Virus record (IMG/VR): IMGVR_UViG_2663762939_000006
DNA length: 38,440 nucleotides
Source: a virus
Taxonomy: Duplodnaviria; Heunggongvirae; Uroviricota; Caudoviricetes
Direction: 5' to 3' (one strand)
The position numbers and the translations under genes are program-made. Shown here in pieces: positions 6,647 to 15,513 of this stretch (its first letter is position 1; each line of letters opens with the position of its first letter). The notes beneath the pieces were generated by a model. It was not told where the DNA came from. It was given only the letters and a program-made list of their open reading frames with translations, and searched no databases.

Positions 6647-7243
6647 TCAGTGGGAGTGGTGGCTGGAGTTTTCGCCATCAGACAACATACTGCCCGTGGC
6701 ATGGGCATTCCCTTTAATCTCGATATTGCCATGGATGGTCGCGGTAACACCTTCACCACCAGAACCCGCCATGCCTCCTTCGTAAATCAGTTTACCCCTG
6801 ACACGCAGATCTCCGGTAAGTTCGGTTTCCGGTGCGTCAATCGTGGCTTTCTGTGTTTTCAATACCACATCAGCACCACACTCAATGACAATATGCTCAA
6901 TGCCGCCCCGGATGATCAGAGTGTGCGTCTTCCGGTTGTAGCTGTACTCTGCACCATCAGCAAACCGGGTTCCCCGGATATTTTTGTCACTGAACGGTGG
7001 TTTATCGACGTCTGAATACACCGCGCCCAGAATAACACCATCCTCGCCGTTGGCATCGAGCAGCACCTCAACCTGCTCCCCCACGTCAGGGAGCCAGTAA
7101 TCTTTGTTATCCTGGGTATTGCGCTGCAGCACGTTAAGCCAGTTTGTGCGCAGGTTATCGCATTCAGGCAGACGAACGCGGGCCTGAACCCTGTCGGCAT
7201 CAACGGCACTGACCGTACCGACCTGACGAGTGACACCAGTCAT
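6647..7243 (-). CDS. baseplate assembly protein V / central spike (Mu gp45)
   Basis: 198 aa; gpV-like N-terminal OB region and Gly-rich C-terminus; position. Confidence 0.7.
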   Translation of the reverse strand: MTGVTRQVGTVSAVDADRVQARVRLPECDNLRTNWLNVLQRNTQDNKDYWLPDVGEQVEVLLDANGEDGVILGAVYSDVDKPPFSDKNIRGTRFADGAEYSYNRKTHTLIIRGGIEHIVIECGADVVLKTQKATIDAPETELTGDLRVRGKLIYEGGMAGSGGEGVTATIHGNIEIKGNAHATGSMLSDGENSSHHSH

Positions 7244-8394
7244 TTTTTCTTCTCCTTAATCACCGTCGATGTACTGCCATCCGGGTGATAAACCGTGAGT
7301 TTCTGAGTTTTTTGTTTTTTCCCTCTTGTGACTGGCCCCCGTGCCACTTCCAGCTCTGTGGTGTAGCCGCTGTTACGGTCAAACGCATGGCGGGCAGTGG
7401 TTATGAGCCATGGCCCGGATAACTGCCCAAAACCCACCAGTTCAATTTTGTTGCCTGCTGTCAGTTGAGGTGTTCCCGTCAGCGTCAGGGAGCCGTTCTG
7501 CTGGTATTCGTTATGTCTGGCCAGTGCTGAATCCGCTTTAATCCGGGCACTGTCCGGGTCGCTGACGCGGCTGTTAACTTTAAGTGAGTCAGCGCTGGTA
7601 ACCTTACCACCTTTGAGCTTTTTGTCGCTTTCACGGGTACCACCATCAGCTTCGTAGACGATCAGTTTTTTACTGCTGCTTTTCTGGTGTTTTACCTTTG
7701 CAGATTTATAGACCCGGTTGATGGTGTCACGCAGGGAAAAGCGGGCCACATCCTGCGGTTTTAACTGCCTGACCGGCTCCTGACTGCGCAGTGTGGCCAG
7801 ATGAGAAAAAATCAGCTGGTCACTGACCACTTTCACTGCATAACCATACTCGCTGGCCAGCCGGCGCAGAAAACCCACGTCGGTTTCAGCATACTGGGTC
7901 ACCCGGTCGATTCTGATGGACTCAATGCTGCCCACCAGTTTCAGCCGGTGCTTTCTGGCAATCCGCCCCGCAACAGCTGCCAGCGTGGTGTTCTCAAAAC
8001 CACGGCTGGATTTAGTCCGCAGAGCACTGTTAACCGAGGTGGCCACCCCACGGATAGCGACAACGGACGCGGGCGAACTCACTTCGATCTCGTCTATTGA
8101 GAATGTACCGCAGGACAGCAGTTTCTCGCCCTGATAACCCATTTTCAGCGTCAGCGTGTCACCCTTGCCCGGATACCACTTATCCAGCCAGCGGCCATCG
8201 GTGTCGTCCAGCTCCACCTCAATGGTATCGGACTCATTTTTGATGTTATCGCTCCAGGTCACACGGGTGACATAAGGCGCGATATCAGAGGTGATGTTTT
8301 TCTGCAGATACCACAGAGTGAATACCGGCGTCAGCACATCGCTGACGCCGGTTAACGCTGATGTGGCTTGCGCAGTACTGTTTATCTCAGCCAT
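7240..8394 (-). CDS. tail/baseplate hub protein (Mu gp44 / P2 gpD-like)
   Basis: 384 aa; position between DNA-circulation protein and spike; lysine-rich C-terminus. Confidence 0.65.
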   Translation of the reverse strand: MAEINSTAQATSALTGVSDVLTPVFTLWYLQKNITSDIAPYVTRVTWSDNIKNESDTIEVELDDTDGRWLDKWYPGKGDTLTLKMGYQGEKLLSCGTFSIDEIEVSSPASVVAIRGVATSVNSALRTKSSRGFENTTLAAVAGRIARKHRLKLVGSIESIRIDRVTQYAETDVGFLRRLASEYGYAVKVVSDQLIFSHLATLRSQEPVRQLKPQDVARFSLRDTINRVYKSAKVKHQKSSSKKLIVYEADGGTRESDKKLKGGKVTSADSLKVNSRVSDPDSARIKADSALARHNEYQQNGSLTLTGTPQLTAGNKIELVGFGQLSGPWLITTARHAFDRNSGYTTELEVARGPVTRGKKQKTQKLTVYHPDGSTSTVIKEKKK

Positions 8395-8594: not shown

Positions 8595-9478
8595 CACACA
8601 CTCCTCGTCAGTATTCTGGCGGCCATTGCACTTAATCCCGGAGACATGCGGTTGAATGCTGTGCCGGCGGCGTTAAGCTGCCCGGAAACGGTATCCAGAG
8701 CACCTGCAATATTTCTTTTGTCCACACCACTCAGCGCAGACTGTGCCTGCTGTACATACGTGGCTGCTTCGCTGGCTGTTCTGGCCAGACTGATGGCATC
8801 GGGCATGGATTCAGAGAGTGCGTTAAACGCCGGAACACTTTTCCCCAGAGCCCCGGAGATATTACCCAGTCCGCTCATCAGCCCCGGCACACGGGTCAGT
8901 GCGACAACGGGGTTATCCTTCATTTTCTGTGTCACCCGAACGGCGCTGATAGTGGTCTGGAGTACAGACTGCGCCTGTTTCGCATAGTTGACGCCGTTGC
9001 GGATGAACTGCGCCACCCCTGAAGGCGAAGGAATGGCACCGGAGACCGCCCCGACACCCGGGAGCTTCGTGCGTATTGCCGGTGGTTGCAGAGGATTTTT
9101 CGGGTCACCGGTGTATTCCCGGAGAGACACGGTGGCACTGACAGCCAGCACGTTGCCGGTATTGTCAGTCTGCTCGCTGGTTGCAGTCACATCGGTAATC
9201 ACGAACCAGCCGCGATAGTCACCGTTGCCGAAGACCAGCGCCAGTGCCTGATGGGCTTTCATGGCTGTTCGCAGTCTCGCCAGCTCCACATCGGGTACAC
9301 AATAATGCTGATGGAAAACCAGAGTTATCTGGATTTCGTCCAGCCTGTCGCCGACGAACTGCAGGCCAGGCTTACCCCCGATGCGGGCATGCTCCGCATA
9401 ATCGACGCCGAACGTGGCCTCGAAGCCGTCCCAGTAGGTAATCAGCTCAAACTCAATATCACCCAGTACGGCAAACAT
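8594..9478 (-). CDS. DNA circulation protein (Mu N-like)
   Basis: 294 aa directly downstream of tape measure, overlapping stop/start; position as in Mu. Confidence 0.6.
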   Translation of the reverse strand: MFAVLGDIEFELITYWDGFEATFGVDYAEHARIGGKPGLQFVGDRLDEIQITLVFHQHYCVPDVELARLRTAMKAHQALALVFGNGDYRGWFVITDVTATSEQTDNTGNVLAVSATVSLREYTGDPKNPLQPPAIRTKLPGVGAVSGAIPSPSGVAQFIRNGVNYAKQAQSVLQTTISAVRVTQKMKDNPVVALTRVPGLMSGLGNISGALGKSVPAFNALSESMPDAISLARTASEAATYVQQAQSALSGVDKRNIAGALDTVSGQLNAAGTAFNRMSPGLSAMAARILTRSV

Positions 9479-12400
9479 CAGCGGTACTCCTTACGTTGTT
9501 TCTGAGCCAGCAGACGCTCCAGCATTTTTTCCAGCTCATGCAGACTCATATTCAGGGCACCAGTCAGTCCTGCAGGCGCTGTGGTTTCCCTGCCATTGAG
9601 GAAAAACTGAGGATTAAAGCTGACCTGGATACCACCAGACGTTCCACCGCCGGTTGCAGCTGCACCACGGCCTGAATATCCGGCAGCCATGATTTCAGGC
9701 GAGGGGATACGGGGAACATCCGGTGTCATCTCATTTGCCAGACGTTGCCCTGGTAAAATCGATGCCCGGGTGGAGAGCGGGATAGCGGGCATGGAAGACA
9801 AACTATTGATTACGGCTCCGATCGCATTTTTAGCAGACGACATAAACCCATTGATATCGGGCAACGGCATACTGAAGCGAACACCTGAAGTGTTATCCCG
9901 TATTTCTGGCCCCTGAATGCTCACGGGCATTCTGGGGAGCAGTTCACTGGCCATTCGCTGCCCGGCCAGAGCTGCAAGCGGAGTGGTCCGCTGCAGGCCA
10001 ATGGCGGCCCCCTGCGCGATATTGTCACCAAAGCCCATAAACACGCGGCTCGGCGAATGAATGCCCAGCTTTTCGCTGAACCAGCCACTGATGCTGTCGC
10101 CCATTCCGGTTACACTGGATTTGAGCGACTCCCATTTGTTTTTGATACCGTTAATCAGACCGTCGACAAGATGGCCACCGAAGTCGGTGAACTTTGCCGG
10201 CAGATCAACACCAAGATATTTCAGCGCAGCTGCAAAGGCTTTATAGAGCAGACCTGCCGGCGACCAGTTAATCAGCAGCTTACCAGTTCCCGCGATACCG
10301 CCGTTAAAGGCTTCCTGAATGTCAGCCCAGCACTGTTTAAACCAGCTACTGATGCTGTCACCCATTCCGGTTACACTGGATTTGAGCGACCCCCATTTGT
10401 TTTTGATACCGTTAATCAGACCGTCGATAAGATGGCCACCGAAGTCGGTGAACTTTGCCGGCAGAGCAACGCCGAAATATTTCAGCGCAGCCGCAAAGGC
10501 TTTATAGAGCAGGCCTGCCGGCGACCAGTTAATCAGCAACTTACCAATTCCCACAATGCCGCCGTTAAAGGCTTCCTGAATGTCAGCCCAGCGCTGTTTA
10601 AACCAGCTACTGATGCTGTCACCCATTCCGGTTACACTGGATTTGAGCGACCCCCATTTGCTTTTGATACCGTTAATCAGACCGTCGATAAGATGGCCAC
10701 CGAAGTCGGTGAACTTTGCCGGCAGAGCAACGCCGAAATATTTCAGCGCAGCCGCAAAGGCTTTATAGAGCAGGCCTGCCGGCGACCAGTTAATCAGCAA
10801 CTTACCAATTCCCACAATGCCGCCGTTAAAGGCTTCCTGAATGTCAGCCCAGCGCTGTTTAAACCAACCACTGACAGCCCCCCAGTTGCGGTAGATAAGG
10901 TAAGCTGCTGTCGCGACAGCGGTGATAACGAGACCGATGGGATTCATCATCAGCGCTCGCCCAATCCAGAGAACGGCACGTGCAGCGCTCATAAAACCGC
11001 GAACGAGGCTGCCCGCCAGAACTTTGCTGAGTTTCAGTCCTCCGCTGGTCAGTCGGCTGAATCCAGTGACAAGCCAGCGTAATTTGCCACCTTCTCCGAG
11101 TGCGGTAGTCAGTCGATGCCAGTTGGTCCGGAGTAAAACAGTAGTTTTCCAGACGTTCACAAAGGGGGAAATAAGGAGATTCAGCCCCAGTTTGAGACCA
11201 ACAGTCGCTATCTTAATCGCAAGGAGCGCACTGATGAGCTTAAAAGCCCCACTGACAAATTGCGGGTGAGTCGCTACCCAGTGTTTTGTCCCCTGAATGA
11301 GTGGGAGCAGTTCCTGAGTCAGAGAAATAAAAGATGGAGCTAATTGATCGCCCAGCGTAATTGCCAGATCGCGACTGCTGACCATAAGTGTTTTAGTGGC
11401 TTCAAGGGGAGATTTCAGCCGCTGATCATAAGCACTGGCAAGCAAATCGTTATCCGCAGCCCTGAGAGCACCGGCACGGATCTCTCGATATCTGTCCATG
11501 TTGGCCAGCATCGGGCGGATAAATGCCATGACCTGCATATCCGCGAACATATCGCCCAGACCAAAGTTTTTCGCCAGAGCCTGAAGTGCCTCATCTCTTG
11601 CCGTATCATTCTTTATTTTCATGGCTGATTTGAAGCCGGCCAGCGCTTCGGGGCTTTTGGCATTGAGGTAACGTTCTATAACACTCAACATCCCTTCAAT
11701 CGGAGAGATCCCCGCAGCTTTATAACTCGCAATAGATCCCTGCAAATCAATACCCAGATCAGCAAACTGTTTCTGAGTATCGCGGGCAAAAATTTTGGTA
11801 AGAAAGTTTTTAAAATTATTGGCTGCTTCGTCGGTGGAACCTGCACCGATTTTTGCTATCTGGAGACTGGCCCCGATTTCAGCAACAGCCTCTTTTCCAC
11901 TGGCAAGACCCGCCATCATTGGGGCCAGGGACTGCATCCACTTGACCTGATCCGGGATTTCAAATGACCCCTGGTCACCGGCATAAGCCATAATATTCTG
12001 AACGGCACCAAAATCTCTGGCCGCACCTTTCAGGGAGTTTTGCCAGACTGCGGCCACTTTTGCCCAGTCCTGAGCAGACGTGCGTGTTGCCGTTGCCGCG
12101 CGGGCAATATCCGGCATCAGAAAACCGATATCTGACACATTATCAATATTGTCGCTGATGAGTGAACCCACCGCCTCCTGCAGCTCATCCTGATACTGAT
12201 TGTATTTAAGCGCCCAGCCTTTTATCTGTCCGGCAAGTGCATCCCGCGTTTTATTGTCATATTTTGCGGTGATCGACATATCAATCATTTTGTCCTGAAA
12301 AGACATGGACTGCTGAACGGCAGGGGAAACCGTATGATAAACAGTCTGTGCCATGCCATACGCTTCAATCCCCTGACCATACAGCGCCATGCGGTTAGCT

Positions 12401-12690
12401 TTCAGCGCATCACTGGTAGCGGATGCCGCTGACAGACGGCGCTGCTGGCGCTCAATTTGCTCCATGGTGCGGCTTACCCGCAGCAGCTCGCTGTTGAGAT
12501 GCTGCATCCGGGAAGAACCCAGTTGACCATAACGTTCTGTTGCACGGGTTAAAGCGTTCTGACGTTCCTGCAGGCGGCGTGAGGTATCGCTCAGGGAATC
12601 AAGCGCACGGCGGGTACCGCTCATTGCAGAACGGAATGTGCTGCCAATCATCCCGCCGATAACAACGCCGACTGAAAACTGTCCCGACAT
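9478..12690 (-). CDS. tail tape measure protein
   Basis: 1070 aa, Ala/Gly-rich with predicted coiled-coil and TM-like segments; three internal ~87-aa tandem repeats; follows the chaperone pair. Confidence 0.85.
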   Translation of the reverse strand: MSGQFSVGVVIGGMIGSTFRSAMSGTRRALDSLSDTSRRLQERQNALTRATERYGQLGSSRMQHLNSELLRVSRTMEQIERQQRRLSAASATSDALKANRMALYGQGIEAYGMAQTVYHTVSPAVQQSMSFQDKMIDMSITAKYDNKTRDALAGQIKGWALKYNQYQDELQEAVGSLISDNIDNVSDIGFLMPDIARAATATRTSAQDWAKVAAVWQNSLKGAARDFGAVQNIMAYAGDQGSFEIPDQVKWMQSLAPMMAGLASGKEAVAEIGASLQIAKIGAGSTDEAANNFKNFLTKIFARDTQKQFADLGIDLQGSIASYKAAGISPIEGMLSVIERYLNAKSPEALAGFKSAMKIKNDTARDEALQALAKNFGLGDMFADMQVMAFIRPMLANMDRYREIRAGALRAADNDLLASAYDQRLKSPLEATKTLMVSSRDLAITLGDQLAPSFISLTQELLPLIQGTKHWVATHPQFVSGAFKLISALLAIKIATVGLKLGLNLLISPFVNVWKTTVLLRTNWHRLTTALGEGGKLRWLVTGFSRLTSGGLKLSKVLAGSLVRGFMSAARAVLWIGRALMMNPIGLVITAVATAAYLIYRNWGAVSGWFKQRWADIQEAFNGGIVGIGKLLINWSPAGLLYKAFAAALKYFGVALPAKFTDFGGHLIDGLINGIKSKWGSLKSSVTGMGDSISSWFKQRWADIQEAFNGGIVGIGKLLINWSPAGLLYKAFAAALKYFGVALPAKFTDFGGHLIDGLINGIKNKWGSLKSSVTGMGDSISSWFKQCWADIQEAFNGGIAGTGKLLINWSPAGLLYKAFAAALKYLGVDLPAKFTDFGGHLVDGLINGIKNKWESLKSSVTGMGDSISGWFSEKLGIHSPSRVFMGFGDNIAQGAAIGLQRTTPLAALAGQRMASELLPRMPVSIQGPEIRDNTSGVRFSMPLPDINGFMSSAKNAIGAVINSLSSMPAIPLSTRASILPGQRLANEMTPDVPRIPSPEIMAAGYSGRGAAATGGGTSGGIQVSFNPQFFLNGRETTAPAGLTGALNMSLHELEKMLERLLAQKQRKEYR
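10060..10865. repeat. three tandem ~261-bp in-frame repeats inside the tape measure gene
   Basis: Unit starts at ~10081, 10342 and 10603 (CCAGC[C/T]ACTGATGCTGTC.CCCATTCCGG..); copies 2 and 3 nearly identical, copy 1 slightly diverged; 261-bp period preserves frame. Confidence 0.85.
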
Positions 12691-12765
12691 AGTGGTTAAC
12701 CTCCGGGGAAGGTGAAAAGACGTGAGGGGATAACGCAGAACAGCCGCTACTGGCGGCTGTCTGTA

Positions 12766-12862
12766 CTATGATTTGTCGCCGTACTCGCTTTTGATTTGCT
12801 CTTCAGCCTGCTCCAGCCACATCTCCAGATCGTCAGTATCGAGGGCATCAATCTCCCCCGGC
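12766..12862 (-). other. frameshift extension of the tail assembly chaperone (GT/E'-like long product), in the +1 (= -2) frame
   Basis: Second ORF overlaps the 3' end of the chaperone ORF and extends 82 nt past its stop; G5 run GCC GGG GGA GAT TGA at 12848-12862 is a candidate slip site. Confidence 0.5.
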
Positions 12863-13183
12863 TGAAACCGGAACCATCTCGCCAGCAGCCCCTGCGCCTG
12901 CGTCAGCGCCCTGGTTGCTCTCACCCATCCCCGTGATGAGCTGAAATCGTTTCTGTAACTGCAGGTAATCAGCCAGATCCATATTGTCGAGATCTTCCGG
13001 GAGAAGACCAGTACTGCGGGCAATCAGCGGTTCGTCCCAGTCTGCCGGGTTTTTGCTGATTTTGCGCACCTGCTTCAGGTCTTTTACCGTCAGGCGTTTC
13101 AGTTCAACCAGCTCAATTCTGGTGCCTGCAGCAGTGGTGAAGGGATAAGACAATTTAAAAGTATCGGATGGGGTCTGTGACAT
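12848..13183 (-). CDS. tail assembly chaperone (G/E-like, short product)
   Basis: ATG at 13181-13183 with SD AGGAG; acidic C-terminal part; sits between tube and tape measure. Confidence 0.7.
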   Translation of the reverse strand: MSQTPSDTFKLSYPFTTAAGTRIELVELKRLTVKDLKQVRKISKNPADWDEPLIARSTGLLPEDLDNMDLADYLQLQKRFQLITGMGESNQGADAGAGAAGEMVPVSAGGD

Positions 13184-13280
13184 GATTGTGCTCCTGTGTA
13201 AGTTCAGGGCAGTATGTCGGGAGAAGCGCGTGACGGATATTAAAGGAGATTAAGAAGAAGGGGCCGGAGCCCCTGTGATG

Positions 13281-13562
13281 TCAGCAAGTGCGAAACCCCT
13301 TGCAGTTACGCAGGAAAGCGATGAGAAGCGTCTTTCCCTCAGATTTGCCGATGCCGGAGAACCAGTGGTCGGGAGGCTCCCATGCTTCAATCAAATCCGC
13401 CAGTTTGCGGGCCTTTGAACGTGTGCAGTCAATCGGGTCATTGGTTTTACGGGTATTAAAAAGGGTTTCCACCCCCGGAATATCAAGGAGGGTAAACCAC
13501 GTACCATTTGACATGCCCAGTGCCGCACATCGTCCTCCTTTATCCGTCAGTTCAACACTCAC
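13281..13562 (-). CDS. hypothetical small protein downstream of tail tube
   Basis: 93-aa ORF tightly packed after the tube gene, but an equally long antisense ORF exists; coding status uncertain. Confidence 0.3.
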   Translation of the reverse strand: MSVELTDKGGRCAALGMSNGTWFTLLDIPGVETLFNTRKTNDPIDCTRSKARKLADLIEAWEPPDHWFSGIGKSEGKTLLIAFLRNCKGFRTC

Positions 13563-13564
13563 CG

Positions 13565-14086
13565 TCAGCCCCCGATATTGATACGGTAGTCAGTCAGTTG
13601 ATCAACACCGCCGACCCGGAAGATGTTGGCCAGATAGTCCAGTTGCAGCAGCTCTTCACCATCCAGTACCTGTCTGATATACGTGCAGGTGAAGCTACTG
13701 GAGAACTCGGCGTTCTCGTGCTGTTTGAACGTCCCCAGCGGGTTCTTCTTGAACATAATCGTCAGGAAGGTGACCAGCGGGATTTCGTCAATCAGCCCCT
13801 GCGAGCTGTAGCGCTGGACGCTGGAACGACACTGCAGTGCCAGCGACCTGTACGGGTTCGCGGCAGACAGCATCGCATCGCGGTAAAAGCTGTTCCATTT
13901 GATTTCGCCTTCCAGCTTGTCAAAACCAGCCGGGAGTTCCACCTTACCCACCATCCCCAGCGCCTTGTGTTCCTGCATAATCATGGAGACATCGGGGAGT
14001 TTGACTTCCTCAGCCCGTCCCAGCAGGTTAGTACCATCCAGATAGATGTTGGCATTCGTGATGCGGTTTATCTCAATCTTTGACAT
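13565..14086 (-). CDS. tail tube protein (Mu M-like)
   Basis: 173 aa immediately downstream of sheath, overlapping stop/start; conserved sheath-tube order. Confidence 0.75.
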   Translation of the reverse strand: MSKIEINRITNANIYLDGTNLLGRAEEVKLPDVSMIMQEHKALGMVGKVELPAGFDKLEGEIKWNSFYRDAMLSAANPYRSLALQCRSSVQRYSSQGLIDEIPLVTFLTIMFKKNPLGTFKQHENAEFSSSFTCTYIRQVLDGEELLQLDYLANIFRVGGVDQLTDYRINIGG

Positions 14087-15513
14087 CAGTTGCCCCCTTT
14101 CAGGGTTAACAGGTATTCCGAGGTGATCTCAGTCTCAAACGTCAGTCGCTCCAGCGGCGGTGGTGGCGTATATTTGTAGCTCAGCAACAGGTGCCCGGCG
14201 GCCAGCTCCGTCTCCGGATTGCGGGCCGGATCAAACCAGCAACGGAAGCCCAGTACCGCACCATCACCAGTCATTTTGCGACCGTAGGCGTTGACCGACT
14301 CCGTCAGTGCATCAATCAGCGCCTGAGTAATCGGCATGTCGATGTACTGCTGGCTGAAATAACGAATGGACTCGTTGATCACATCACCGGTGCGGCGAAC
14401 GTTCTCAAAGTTACGCATATGGGTGACCGTTGGCCATGCTGCCGTCCGGTTACCCCACAGACGAAGGCCGCTGCCGTAACTGCTGAATACCGTGGTGATC
14501 CCCTGTTCGTTAAGCAGGTTCACCTCACTCTGCGGGTCATCAATCATCGCGGACAGCTGGCGCTCCACGCCGGTGATCCCCAGAATCTCCTGATTGGAGG
14601 ATGACCACCAGTAGCCCTTGTCCAGATCGACTCTGGCACGCAGACCTGCTGCACGCTGGCTGAGCGGCTCCAGACGCTCTGTGTTTGTCACCGGGTCATA
14701 TACCTTCACATGCGGATAGCACAGACGGACGCGGTCGGAGCTGGTATTGAAGTTGATGGTGCCTTCCGGGCCACGACCTGCCAGAGCCTGTGCAAAGGTG
14801 GTACCGACAGGCGCATCAATGTAGGTTATCGCGCCCAGCTTCTCTGCCATGGCGATAAGCTCAACTGCGACACTCTTCTGGGTGCAGAACACCGGCGCAA
14901 TCAGAATTTTGGCGAAATAGCCGTACAGGTTGAAGCTGTCGTTAAGCAGCTTCATGCCGGTTCGGTTTCCGGCGCTGTTCACCCCGCCGATGATGTCCGC
15001 CGCAGTCACCTTCGACGGGTCCGCGTACTCATAGCTCACCTTCACGCTGCCACCGGCCTCAATAGCCTTGCCCAGGTTCGTGAGCACACCCGCCTGCGCA
15101 TCAACACGGTAGTCCGTGTTCGCCGTGTGGGTGGTGCTGCCTTCACTGTTTTTCACCACCACATTAGCGACAACCGGATGCGCCAGTCTGGCCTGCCCTG
15201 TCGATTTGTCAAAGGTAACCACCTCATCCTCGATCGCCGTTTTATGTTTCGCCGGGTCGAGGACGTTAATGACCAGAACGGTGCCTGCACCATGGTCATA
15301 AATCGCATCCAGCGCCTGCGGAATGGTAAAGCCGGTGAACTGGCTGCCAAATGCCGCTGCGTCTTTCTCAGACAGGCACTGTACCAGCGTATTGACATCC
15401 CCCATCGGGGCGGTACCAATCAGGCCAATAACGGCAGATTTCACCGTTTTAACCGGGCGGGCTCCGTTTTCCACCTCAATGGTTTCGGGACCATGCAGAT
15501 AGTTAGCTGCCAT
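14086..15513 (-). CDS. contractile tail sheath protein (Mu L-like)
   Basis: 475 aa; size, position and sequence character typical of myovirus sheath. Confidence 0.8.
   Translation of the reverse strand: MAANYLHGPETIEVENGARPVKTVKSAVIGLIGTAPMGDVNTLVQCLSEKDAAAFGSQFTGFTIPQALDAIYDHGAGTVLVINVLDPAKHKTAIEDEVVTFDKSTGQARLAHPVVANVVVKNSEGSTTHTANTDYRVDAQAGVLTNLGKAIEAGGSVKVSYEYADPSKVTAADIIGGVNSAGNRTGMKLLNDSFNLYGYFAKILIAPVFCTQKSVAVELIAMAEKLGAITYIDAPVGTTFAQALAGRGPEGTINFNTSSDRVRLCYPHVKVYDPVTNTERLEPLSQRAAGLRARVDLDKGYWWSSSNQEILGITGVERQLSAMIDDPQSEVNLLNEQGITTVFSSYGSGLRLWGNRTAAWPTVTHMRNFENVRRTGDVINESIRYFSQQYIDMPITQALIDALTESVNAYGRKMTGDGAVLGFRCWFDPARNPETELAAGHLLLSYKYTPPPPLERLTFETEITSEYLLTLKGGN

Follow-up and report, generated by a model that had tools for sequence, protein, structure and literature searches.

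The tail chaperone locus

[quoted passage not shown] The window (the whole stretch of 38,440 nt that was analysed) is an E. coli prophage, BcepMu-like (Bcepmuvirus), whose contractile tail module is of the P2 type, and PhiKM, which is 99.9% identical, is classified in Bcepmuvirus. The relevant parts of the tail module are as follows.

13565–14086, minus strand: tail tube gene of the P2 FII type (PF04985, E = 2.9e-53), upstream neighbour of the chaperone gene
12848–13183, minus strand: tail assembly chaperone gene, zero frame, 111 aa (ORF and translation), ending ...VSAGGD and a stop
12941–13162, minus strand: conserved chaperone domain (PF10109, residues 8–81)
12741–12759, minus strand: GC-rich hairpin CAGCCGC-CAGTA-GCGGCTG, a few bases past the stop of the +1 ORF and before the tape-measure start
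9478–12690, minus strand: tape measure protein gene (PF10145; synteny with BcepMu gp44 and P2 gpT), downstream of the chaperone pair

The gene at 12848–13183 is the equivalent of P2 gpE and lambda gpG. Its product matches Phage_TAC_7 (PF10109) with E = 5.5e-21 and 74.8 bits (Pfam cut-off 25), and carries the RefSeq name 'phage tail assembly protein'; an NCBIfam scan returned no matches for the chaperone, for both fusion models considered below or for P2 E+E′. Beyond the domain, the zero-frame tail of the chaperone is variable and its stop moves, giving proteins of 90, 104, 106, 109 or 111 aa among relatives. The chaperone pair lies between the tube and tape-measure genes, the classical position of G/GT pairs. 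Xu, Hendrix and Duda reportedly described, in 2004, G/GT-type frameshift pairs of tail chaperones and the −2 frameshift of Mu; their findings are taken here from the GenBank annotation of Mu and from PMC5009743, PMC3498833 and PMC2628397. A small extra ORF (13281–13562) sits between the tube and chaperone genes, and the folding of the hairpin at 12741–12759 is kept in nearly all relatives, with differing stem sequences.

Selection on the overlapping frame

A second ORF is open from 13023 to 12766 on the minus strand, overlapping the 3′ part of the chaperone gene. Its codons start at 0 mod 3 and those of the chaperone at 1 mod 3, so that the second frame is the +1 (equal to −2) frame on this strand. 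The initial annotation had placed the extension in this frame, unlike the usual −1 frame, and its coordinates and frame arithmetic are all correct; the overlapping +1/−2 frame and the sequence that it gave at 12862–12848 (minus strand; GCC GGG GGA GAT TGA, with five G at 12859–12855) are both confirmed.

12766–12942, minus strand: +1-frame segment after UUU_C, 58 codons and a stop (SSSRGWVRATRALTQAQGLLARWFRFQPGEIDALDTDDLEMWLEQAEEQIKSEYGDKS), E′/T-like extension
12787–12885, minus strand: weak match to Phage_P2_GpE (PF06528), residues 100–132 of the predicted fusion
12855–12859, minus strand: G5 run, part of the +1-frame codons CCG GGG GAG (Pro-Gly-Glu)

Related phages lacking an overlapping ORF at this place, together with the absence of a fusion peptide, had been named as evidence that would speak against a frameshift; the ORF is kept in 56 distinct relatives. 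Its amino acids are near-invariant across all of these while the nucleotides vary at the wobble positions of its own frame. The codon-position entropy of the 56 sequences passes from the zero-frame wobble to the +1-frame wobble just past the Phe codon discussed below, and, starting about 45 nt before the G5 run, the zero-frame third position hardly varies. Between alignment nt 79 and 123, the 28 extra codons counted in the zero frame bring 24 extra amino acids, and the 26 counted in the +1 frame bring 7. The synonymous excess in the +1 frame is seen equally in the 17 sequences that have the stop arrangement of the window. In these, the 42 nt ending at the G5 run (alignment nt 89–130) hold nine extra codon variants with no amino acid change in the +1 frame, and nearly all of the variants alter the zero-frame amino acid. 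This 42 nt stretch, before and including the run (LARWFRFQPGEID...), resembles the P2 E′ domain.

The PF06528 match of the extension is weak (E = 0.0015, 18.4 bits, under the 23-bit cut-off). BLASTP against P2 E+E′ aligned LARWFRFQPGEIDALDTDDLEMWLEQA with VAVIFHWPPSELYPMSLTELITWREKA (E = 0.07), the E′ of a Pasteurella phage reads AWWFGWNVSEIEQMTLDELSTWLEQANRQIK, and fragments of the +1 segment are labelled 'GpE family phage tail protein' by NCBI. Near-invariance of the protein, variation at its own wobble positions and the resemblance to P2 E′ together indicate that the +1 ORF is no chance ORF. A search for a conserved +1-frame start codon found, in the best column, one in 38 of 84 distinct sequences; as in G/GT pairs, the downstream ORF is coding and has no conserved start of its own. 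Antisense coding was also considered as the source of the periodicity, and rejected: the variable sites would fall on the first codon positions of the plus-strand ORF at 12796–12936, a pattern unlike that of coding sequence.

The interval of the putative shift and the UUU_C site

The sequence comparisons make a programmed frameshift the best explanation for the expression of the +1 extension. The slip can be narrowed down to a short stretch near 12946 by stops in relatives and by a +1-frame Trp that never varies.

12928–12960, minus strand: interval that should hold the shift, judged by close relatives, from the nearest +1-frame stop (relative L005) to the invariant +1-frame Trp
12925–12927, minus strand: +1-frame TGG (Trp), invariant in the enteric alignment (alignment A2, columns 35–37)
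12943–12949, minus strand: candidate +1 shift site CGA_UUU_C (E-site CGA 12949–12947, UUU of Phe-80 12946–12944, C 12943)

In L005 the +1 frame becomes open 14 nt ahead of UUU, and in Ralstonia phage YO107_2 and Pseudomonas phage Komp_PAO1_1 it does so 8 nt ahead; the upstream limit would move to 8 nt before UUU if the site is common to relatives L150 and L151. On the downstream side, the Trp sits 19 nt past the first U of UUU and is the earliest clear mark of selection on the +1-frame protein. Weaker downstream limits are set by the zero-frame stops at codon 91 (L032) and at about codon 89 (L133/L134). The BcepMu residues F-A-A-W, where a Trp comes soon after the Phe, align with F-S-S-S-R-G-W of the window.

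UUU_C is the sole conserved slippery element inside the bounded interval; it is in frame and precedes the G5 run by about 85 nt. Of the distinct chaperone ORFs, drawn from four subfamilies, 100/100 have TTT followed by C, a conserved slippery sequence of the kind expected of G/GT pairs. Included are 14/14 GC-rich BcepMu-family genes (in that family TTT makes up, as a rough background, about 23% of Phe codons), and UUU_C is present also in the Ralstonia and Pseudomonas phage relatives. A first motif search had located 142 loci, with TTT then C in all 142. The sequences share ancestry, so that the TTT counts are not independent trials, which is answered only partly by an internal control of 19 conserved degenerate codon columns, 18 of which vary synonymously, with only Phe-80 never doing so (78 distinct sequences). 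CGA, which by a rough estimate makes up about 9% of Arg codons in the background, precedes UUU in 55/56 and 26/26 enteric sequences. In the window, CGA_UUU_CAG (12949–12941) conforms to the UUU_Y type of +1 site, within the open +1 frame (13023–12766).

On this evidence tRNA-Phe probably slips +1 at this site, from UUU to UUC, to give a 138 aa E+E′-like fusion. The putative junction is placed by comparative genomics. The zero-frame codon in the A site is CAG or CAA, with CGC, CGT or CGG in BcepMu-type and P0107-like lineages and CUG in the Ralstonia phage; the site is thus without the stop or evidently rare codon that would provide the usual +1-stimulating pause. A conserved RNA structure around or downstream of the site was sought with RNAalifold in 34 diverse sequences and none was found (−1 kcal/mol, no covariation), and the single-sequence fold near the site is marginal (z = −2.1). 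A structural stimulator was rejected on these grounds, so no stimulator was identified beyond the tetranucleotide and the E-site CGA. It is speculation that this near-invariant, rare E-site codon may stimulate the shift.

Alternative sites and mechanisms

The initial annotation was right about the tail-chaperone pair and its +1/−2 extension, and its programmed shift is the best explanation; its choice of the G5 run as the shift site did not hold up. There, just before the chaperone stop, tRNA-Gly would re-pair +1 (GGG to GGG) or −2 (GGA to GGG) as in Mu, giving a fusion reading ...VSAG(G)EIDALD... (peptide ...EMVPVSAG(G)EIDALDTDDLEMWLEQAEEQIK), with the predicted peptides ...GADAGAGAAGEMVPVSAGEIDALDTDDLEMWLEQAEEQIK (+1) or ...SAGGEIDAL... 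(−2) and without ALTQAQGLLAR. The run exists in the window with the right phase for both re-pairings, the nearby stop and rare GGA codon could slow decoding at it, and the 17 relatives with the same stop arrangement keep it. The comparison with the Mu gp41 region that had been proposed was made, and is apt because the verified −2 shift of Mu, as annotated in its GenBank record, is at CGG_GGG_CGA, likewise a G5 run. The chaperone stop, however, lies upstream of the run in 33/56 distinct relatives, at codon 105 (TAG), 17 nt before G5; it is codon 91 in one relative and codon 110 in five, and in these five the run is broken (GGG TGA or GAG TGA). Altogether the run is broken in 10 of the 56: seven keep the +1-frame Pro-Gly-Glu (CCT GGG, CCA GGG, CCG GGT), synonymous changes in that frame, and three change the Gly codon (CCG AGT, CCT GTG). 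It is mostly absent from the more distant P0100 subfamily. The sequence CCG GGG GAG is accounted for by Pro-Gly-Glu coding, and strict purifying selection acts on the +1 frame over 42 nt or more up to and including the run, window-type relatives not excepted. The weak GpE match begins 8–9 residues upstream of the Pro-Gly-Glu that the run encodes, so that a fusion at G5 would cut that domain, losing its conserved LLARWFRFQP part. A shift at the run is therefore highly improbable.

A programmed +1 (or −2) shift upstream of the Trp at some place other than UUU_C, perhaps differing between subfamilies, is unlikely, though some observations fit it. Just past UUU_C, the +1-frame residues vary radically ([SRK][SKNT][SL][RLPQ]) where the zero frame keeps Thr-Gly, which also fits a shift a few codons further downstream, and subfamilies might use different sites. 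The candidate would be ACG_GGG_A (12934–12928), with tRNA-Gly moving from GGG to GGA: the wobble position of this Gly codon (12931–12929) is invariant in 56 close relatives, and clear +1-frame conservation begins right after this region, at Gly-Trp. Against it, the GGG is missing from the P0100 subfamily (CTT AGC ATG) and from BcepMu; re-pairing from GGG to GGA, GGC or GGT leaves a wobble mismatch; and the frozen wobble bases of CGA, UUU and CAG go unaccounted for. In the BcepMu and Pseudomonas relatives the Trp codon comes only 6 nt past UUU_C, leaving no other slippery site. Expression without any frameshift, the +1 ORF being translated separately from an internal start as a small 'GpE family' protein, is very unlikely. 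NCBI and other gene callers do report proteins of 40–86 aa in this frame, with assorted ATG, GTG and TTG starts, and the window has a GTG (12924–12922) just past a G-rich stretch; none of these starts is conserved in any column (maximum 38/84), +1-frame stops in other relatives separate the upstream ones from the rest of the ORF, and the conserved Gly-Trp lies upstream of most of them. The annotation of the homologous P2 system has E′ produced solely as the E+E′ frameshift fusion, and an internal start leaves the selection on UUU_C unexplained. It is barely credible that the fusion is made not on the ribosome but in the RNA or DNA, through slippage of a polymerase on a homopolymer. A one-base deletion does fuse the frames in some assemblies or gene calls; it falls within G5 in L011 and the proteins P0007 and P0009, and slightly upstream in L092. 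This indicates that the run is error-prone, at least in sequencing. Productive transcriptional slippage occurs on A or T runs of about 7–9 or more, and runs of three T or five G are far shorter; fused versions are rare, some come from draft or long-read assemblies, and a deletion in G5 would not use the conserved +1 frame upstream.

Other candidates were rejected. An RF2-like +1 shift at GUU_UAG, which follows a Shine-Dalgarno-like GAGGUG in the relatives with a 104 aa chaperone, is set aside because the +1 frame is already selected over 50 nt further upstream and the other classes have no such TAG. The G4 run GCA_GGG_GCU likewise has +1 selection upstream of it and is broken in several relatives (GGGCCT, GGGTCT, GGGACT, GGCGCT). 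In-frame fused proteins in databases (138–194 aa) result from single-base differences at several places and are uninformative on the natural junction.

Comparison with known frameshift systems

Phage P2 gpE/gpE+E′ shares with the window the gene order tube, E, tape measure, and the PF10109 domain (residues 7–85 in P2, 8–82 in the window). The extensions have in common the motif F-x-[WF]-[PQ]-P-x-E-[LI]...W-x-E-x-A, in addition to the weak PF06528 match; the fusion has 142 aa in P2 and a predicted 138 aa in the window, and both the shift of P2 and the candidate shift of the window fall on a Phe codon right where the chaperone domain ends. In P2 and in Pasteurella phage AFS-2018a the extension lies in the −1 frame, and P2 shifts −1 at T_TTT_TTG, whereas the window has its extension in the +1 frame, has no X_XXY_YYZ heptamer and offers the candidate tetranucleotide UUU_C; a P2-type shift on such a heptamer thus does not apply. 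Overall, the window shares very little sequence identity with P2 here (global alignment score 22.5), so the two Phe codons are not taken to be exactly equivalent. The chaperone profile gave no match to P2 gpE with hhalign (probability 0.07), and Pfam coordinates were used instead.

Mu, a transposable myovirus, also has a tail chaperone (gp41) with an extension in the +1/−2 frame. Mu gp41 matches PF10109 marginally and mainly PF23746 (Gp41_Mu, 116 bits), while PF10109 alone was reported for the window chaperone and PF23746 was not among its matches. The Mu extension has no similarity to E′, and its shift site is a G5 run near the stop; the window differs in that G5 is not conserved as a zero-frame element, and in the far-upstream position of the putative shift, where re-pairing is possible in the +1 direction only. 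The −2 re-pairing of tRNA-Gly on a G run, as in Mu, has no counterpart at UUU_C.

Burkholderia phage BcepMu gp41/gp42 belongs to the same genus-level group as the window and has the same gene order and +1 frame relationship. Its extension is homologous (QPSEIAELDMDDYWHWVDAAEREIK versus QPGEIDALDTDDLEMWLEQAEEQIK) and it has an in-frame UCC_UUU_CGC at the same Phe; the chaperones differ, with about 31% identity, and the linker in the BcepMu extension is longer. The gp42-gp43 slippage given in the BcepMu GenBank record was unsupported by this comparison.

UUU_Y sites prone to +1 shifting are described (PMC5009743, PMC3498833) for bacterial UUU_Ynn sequences, including Yersinia YopN-TyeA, and for influenza A PA-X (UCC_UUU_CGU). 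The window shares with them an in-frame UUU followed by C, at which tRNA-Phe can re-pair with the better-matched UUC, and strong synonymous conservation of the motif and the preceding codon; in the accounts cited, a downstream structure is not required. Unlike them, the A site has no rare or stop codon in most lineages, and the site is a candidate from sequence alone. Lambda gpG/gpGT, as described in PMC5009743, has a shared N-terminus, a fixed ratio of products, a position between the major tail and tape-measure genes and a −1 shift at G_GGA_AAG. It is a functional analogue, differing from the window in its siphovirus tail and −1 direction, with no detectable sequence similarity.

Proposed mechanism and significance

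We infer that the shift is ribosomal and goes +1 rather than −2. Most ribosomes would stay in the zero frame, making about 85 conserved residues and a dispensable variable tail, and a minority would shift +1 at CGA_UUU_C (12949–12943). Chaperones of 84 aa and 90 aa occur naturally, which suggests that a zero-frame stop just past codon 85 would be tolerated. The predicted fusion of 138 aa would read ...LQKRF followed by SSSRGWVRATRALTQAQGLLARWFRFQPGEIDALDTDDLEMWLEQAEEQIKSEYGDKS, with the tryptic peptides FSSSR, GWVR, ALTQAQGLLAR, WFR and FQPGEIDALDTDDLEMWLEQAEEQIK expected, and its C-terminal part would correspond to P2 E′ and lambda T. If the two products act like lambda gpG and gpGT, their common N-terminal domain would coat the tape-measure protein and the rare extension would recruit the tube protein, so that selection may maintain a fixed low ratio of the two products.

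The prophage family is common, occurring in 641 of 5426 complete E. coli genomes. Annotations of its tail genes routinely omit the fusion: the product is missing from the RefSeq and GenBank records checked, and the BcepMu reference record gives a different frameshift pair. The correct position of the shift would give the real sequence of an essential tail-assembly protein, of use in phage annotation, in the engineering of tailocin- or phage-like particles and in training frameshift predictors, for which few well-placed +1 examples exist.

Enteric members have CGA_UUU_CAR, and the UCC_UUU_CGC of BcepMu is almost the influenza PA-X cassette. Chances are even that the whole clade of P2-type chaperones in BcepMu-like phages and prophages of Escherichia, Salmonella, Klebsiella, Erwinia, Brenneria, Burkholderia, Ralstonia and Pseudomonas uses a minimal, structure-free +1 cassette (N_UUU_C), the direction of frameshifting having changed within the family. 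If so, PA-X-type shifting would gain a bacterial model, in which the E-site CGA (inosine-adenine wobble) would be a candidate stimulator. Programmed frameshifting in tail chaperones is of a known kind, to which the putative +1 UUU_C case of the window adds a member, and the established picture of tail chaperone function is unchanged by it. For recoding, it would mean widespread bacterial use of UUU_C for +1 shifting and a natural change of direction, in which the P2 and Pasteurella homologues reach a homologous E′ domain by −1 at about the same Phe and the BcepMu-like phages by +1.

Organisation of the tail chaperone locus

The predicted tail genes around the chaperone all lie on the minus strand, in the following order:

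14086–15513, minus, tail sheath gene (PF04984 and PF17482)
13565–14086, minus, tail tube gene (PF04985)
13281–13562, minus, small ORF (93 aa) between the tail tube and chaperone genes
12848–13183, minus, tail assembly chaperone, 111 aa (PF10109, E=5.5e-21, residues 8–81)
13023–12766, minus, +1 frame overlapping the chaperone gene (open reading frame)
9478–12690, minus, tape-measure gene (PF10145)

The Pfam title of PF10109 is 'Phage tail assembly chaperone proteins, E, or 41 or 14'. Codons of the chaperone gene begin at 1 mod 3 and those of the overlapping frame at 0 mod 3, placing the extension in the +1 (equivalently −2) frame, as the initial annotation had it. That annotation had correctly spotted a chaperone pair with a non-canonical extension; BcepMu gp41/gp42 show the same +1 relationship, and the extension is clearly homologous. 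The region shares 99.9% identity with Escherichia phage PhiKM (classified in Bcepmuvirus), and of 5426 complete E. coli genomes 641 carry it.

The 93 aa ORF is kept in PhiKM, Klebsiella phage KP12 and E. coli genomes, where it is labelled 'hypothetical protein'; its best match, to DUF7739, is weak and sub-threshold (24.7 bits vs a cut-off of 27). P2 and BcepMu have no annotated gene at this position. A terminator-like hairpin (AGGGGCTCCGGCCCCT then TCTTCTTAAT; 13259–13274, minus) follows the ORF, just 5′ of the chaperone gene. Another, GC-rich hairpin (CAGCCGC-CAGTA-GCGGCTG, then a T-rich stretch; 12741–12759, minus) lies a few bases past the +1-ORF stop, before the tape-measure start. A hairpin folds at this place in nearly all relatives, with differing stem sequences, pointing to conservation of an attenuator, a terminator or an element for mRNA stability between the chaperone pair and its downstream neighbour. 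The tape-measure gene carries a tandem repeat (10079–10874, minus) of 3.0 copies of a 261-nt unit (96% matches, 87 aa per unit). In one ST131 genome the gene is exactly 261 nt shorter (2952 vs 3213 nt), and the assembly in the PhiKM record is gapped at the repeat. Repeat number seems to differ between strains, and tail length presumably varies with it.

The G5 run in related elements

The sequence GCC GGG GGA GAT TGA is present at 12862–12848, and a shift by a Gly tRNA on its G5 run (12859–12855) had been proposed. Relatives from bacterial genomes (9 loci) and viral contigs (80 loci), together with phage records, gave 56 distinct sequences. Among these the zero-frame stop shifts in position: codon 112 in 17 (the window's arrangement), 105 in 33, 110 in five and 91 in one. 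The 33 codon-105 relatives have a TAG 17 nt upstream of the run, so that a zero-frame ribosome never gets to it. The run is broken in 10 of the 56 sequences; seven of these keep the +1-frame Pro-Gly-Glu (CCT GGG, CCA GGG, CCG GGT), and three alter the +1-frame Gly codon itself (CCG AGT, CCT GTG). In the more distant P0100 subfamily the run is mostly absent.

Codon-position entropy passes from zero-frame to +1-frame wobble soon after codon 80 and, starting about 45 nt before the run, third positions of the zero frame are essentially invariant. Over the 42 nt ending at the run, the 17 window-type sequences show nine extra codon variants in the +1 frame, including CGG/AGG/CGC (Arg), TTT/TTC and CAG/CAA, with no amino-acid change; nearly all the variants change the zero-frame residue. 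These results indicate that translation in the +1 frame is already under way well before the run. In that frame CCG GGG GAG is predicted simply to encode Pro-Gly-Glu, and the mechanism first proposed is almost certainly off by about 85 nt.

In an Erwinia tracheiphila genome (L011, a polished long-read assembly) and in proteins P0007 and P0009 (from read-archive assemblies), loss of one base from the G5 run joins the chaperone and +1 ORF into a single frame, the junctions reading ...SAGEIDAL... or ...PAGEIDAL...; in locus L092 the missing base lies just before the run. Homopolymer sequencing errors or genuine pseudogene-like variants may account for these cases.

A candidate shift site at UUU_C

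Upstream limits on the shift were set by +1-frame stops, and downstream limits by zero-frame stops. In one relative (L005) the opening of the +1 frame precedes the Phe-80 codon by 14 nt; in Ralstonia phage YO107_2 and Pseudomonas phage Komp_PAO1_1 it precedes the corresponding Phe by 8 nt. The zero frame stops at codon 91 in L032, and at about codon 89 in L133/L134. In the L032/P0026 variant a CAG to TAG change at codon 91 (12913–12911), silent in the +1 frame, cuts the zero-frame product to 90 aa (protein cluster on 914 contigs). Similar 84-aa chaperones occur in another subfamily (L133/L134), so that the zero-frame tail seems dispensable past about residue 85. An invariant Trp codon of the +1 frame (12927–12925), kept in the enteric families and aligning with a Trp in BcepMu, tightens the downstream limit. 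Within these limits the predicted shift must fall in 12960–12928; about 18 nt, centred on the Phe codon, would be left if the site is common to distant relatives.

The sole invariant run in this interval is TTT then C (12946–12943). A first motif scan found it in all 142 located loci, and it is present in 100 of 100 distinct ORFs for the chaperone, which span four subfamilies and include 14 of 14 GC-rich BcepMu-family genes, where the rough TTT background is ~23% of Phe codons. An internal control compared 78 distinct enteric sequences at the 19 conserved, degenerate amino-acid columns of the chaperone domain: 18 vary synonymously, and the Phe of UUU_C alone is frozen. In 55/56 and 26/26 enteric sequences the rare codon CGA comes directly before UUU, and might conceivably contribute from the E site. 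The site reads CGA_UUU_CUG in the Ralstonia phage, GUG_UUU_CGG in the Pseudomonas phage and UCC_UUU_CGC in BcepMu. No conserved RNA structure was found around or downstream of UUU_C, and no conserved +1-frame start codon.

In bacteria, UUU_Ynn has a particular tendency to +1 frameshifting, also where no stop codon is present, and is the likely YopN-TyeA frameshift site (PMC5009743). Binding of tRNA-Phe is better to UUC than to UUU, the basis of the influenza PA-X +1 shift at UCC_UUU_CGU (PMC3498833). A −2 slip at UUU_C would place the tRNA on GAU, with which it would not re-pair; re-pairing here is predicted to work as +1 only.

Shifting at codon 80 would give a fusion of 138 aa. Its residues 100–132 match PF06528 (Phage_P2_GpE) with E=0.0015, below the curated cut-off, and BLASTP aligned window LARWFRFQPGEIDALDTDDLEMWLEQA to P2 E′ VAVIFHWPPSELYPMSLTELITWREKA. 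Pieces of the +1 ORF carry the NCBI name 'GpE family phage tail protein', and the −1-frame extension of Pasteurella phage AFS-2018a contains AWWFGWNVSEIEQMTLDELSTWLEQANRQIK.

Proposed mechanism and relation to known systems

Probably, most ribosomes make the zero-frame product, a conserved ~85-residue domain with a variable tail whose stop position drifts, while a minority slip +1 on UUU_C to give the 138-aa E+E′-like fusion. By analogy with lambda gpG/gpGT (PMC5009743), the fusion would join the tape-measure protein to the tube protein. The sequence comparison establishes the frame relationship, selection on the +1 frame, the limits on the shift and the conservation of UUU_C; the exact junction, a ribosomal origin of the event, its efficiency and any part played by the CGA are inferred. 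The main alternative, which is unlikely, is a shift a few codons downstream of UUU_C, for example at ACG_GGG_A: the substitutions nearby fit such a site, but other subfamilies do not conserve it. Fusion at the G5 run would lose the first third of the E′-like domain; a shift there is conceivable at most as a minor extra event, confined to window-type phages, and very improbable even so.

Programmed frameshifting of tail chaperones is conserved across tailed phages and usually −1, and Mu has a verified −2 shift (PMC5009743; PMC3498833; PMC2628397) with an efficiency of about 2.2% (PMC3498833). The Mu site is CGG_GGG_CGA, and the product is annotated in the current GenBank record. The earlier comparison with Mu holds in that Mu also departs from −1, but does not extend to the G5 run as shift site. 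With Mu and BcepMu as precedents, a +1/−2 chaperone pair is not a new kind of thing.

The BcepMu record puts slippage between gp42 and gp43, which comparison does not support since gp41 is the chaperone and gp42 the E′-like extension. BcepMu gp43 (L004, AY539836, about 7065–7310, between gp42 and the tape-measure gene) is annotated as 'alternative gene42 C-terminus produced by ribosomal slippage'. Its translation is low-complexity, the strand opposite the tail genes encodes a hydrophobic, membrane-protein-like sequence (MNIQSIAEGITYTVIAIAGVVLAVWLFIELPWW...), and gp43 may be a mis-annotation. The P2-like AFS-2018a (L152, MH238466, locus 668–1100) has a homologous E′-type domain in the −1 frame and A_AAG_GGA near the chaperone gene end; its record annotates no frameshift product.

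For the enteric element, no slippage product is annotated in the RefSeq/GenBank records checked. The feature is best read, from comparative sequence, as a tail-chaperone programmed frameshift, +1 at UUU_C, which belongs to a known kind and at present lacks annotation. Taken alone its interest is modest; it gains somewhat as an example spanning a family, where homologous E/E′ genes are joined by a −1 shift in P2-like phages (E+E′ of P2 at T_TTT_TTG) and would be joined by a +1 shift in BcepMu-like phages.
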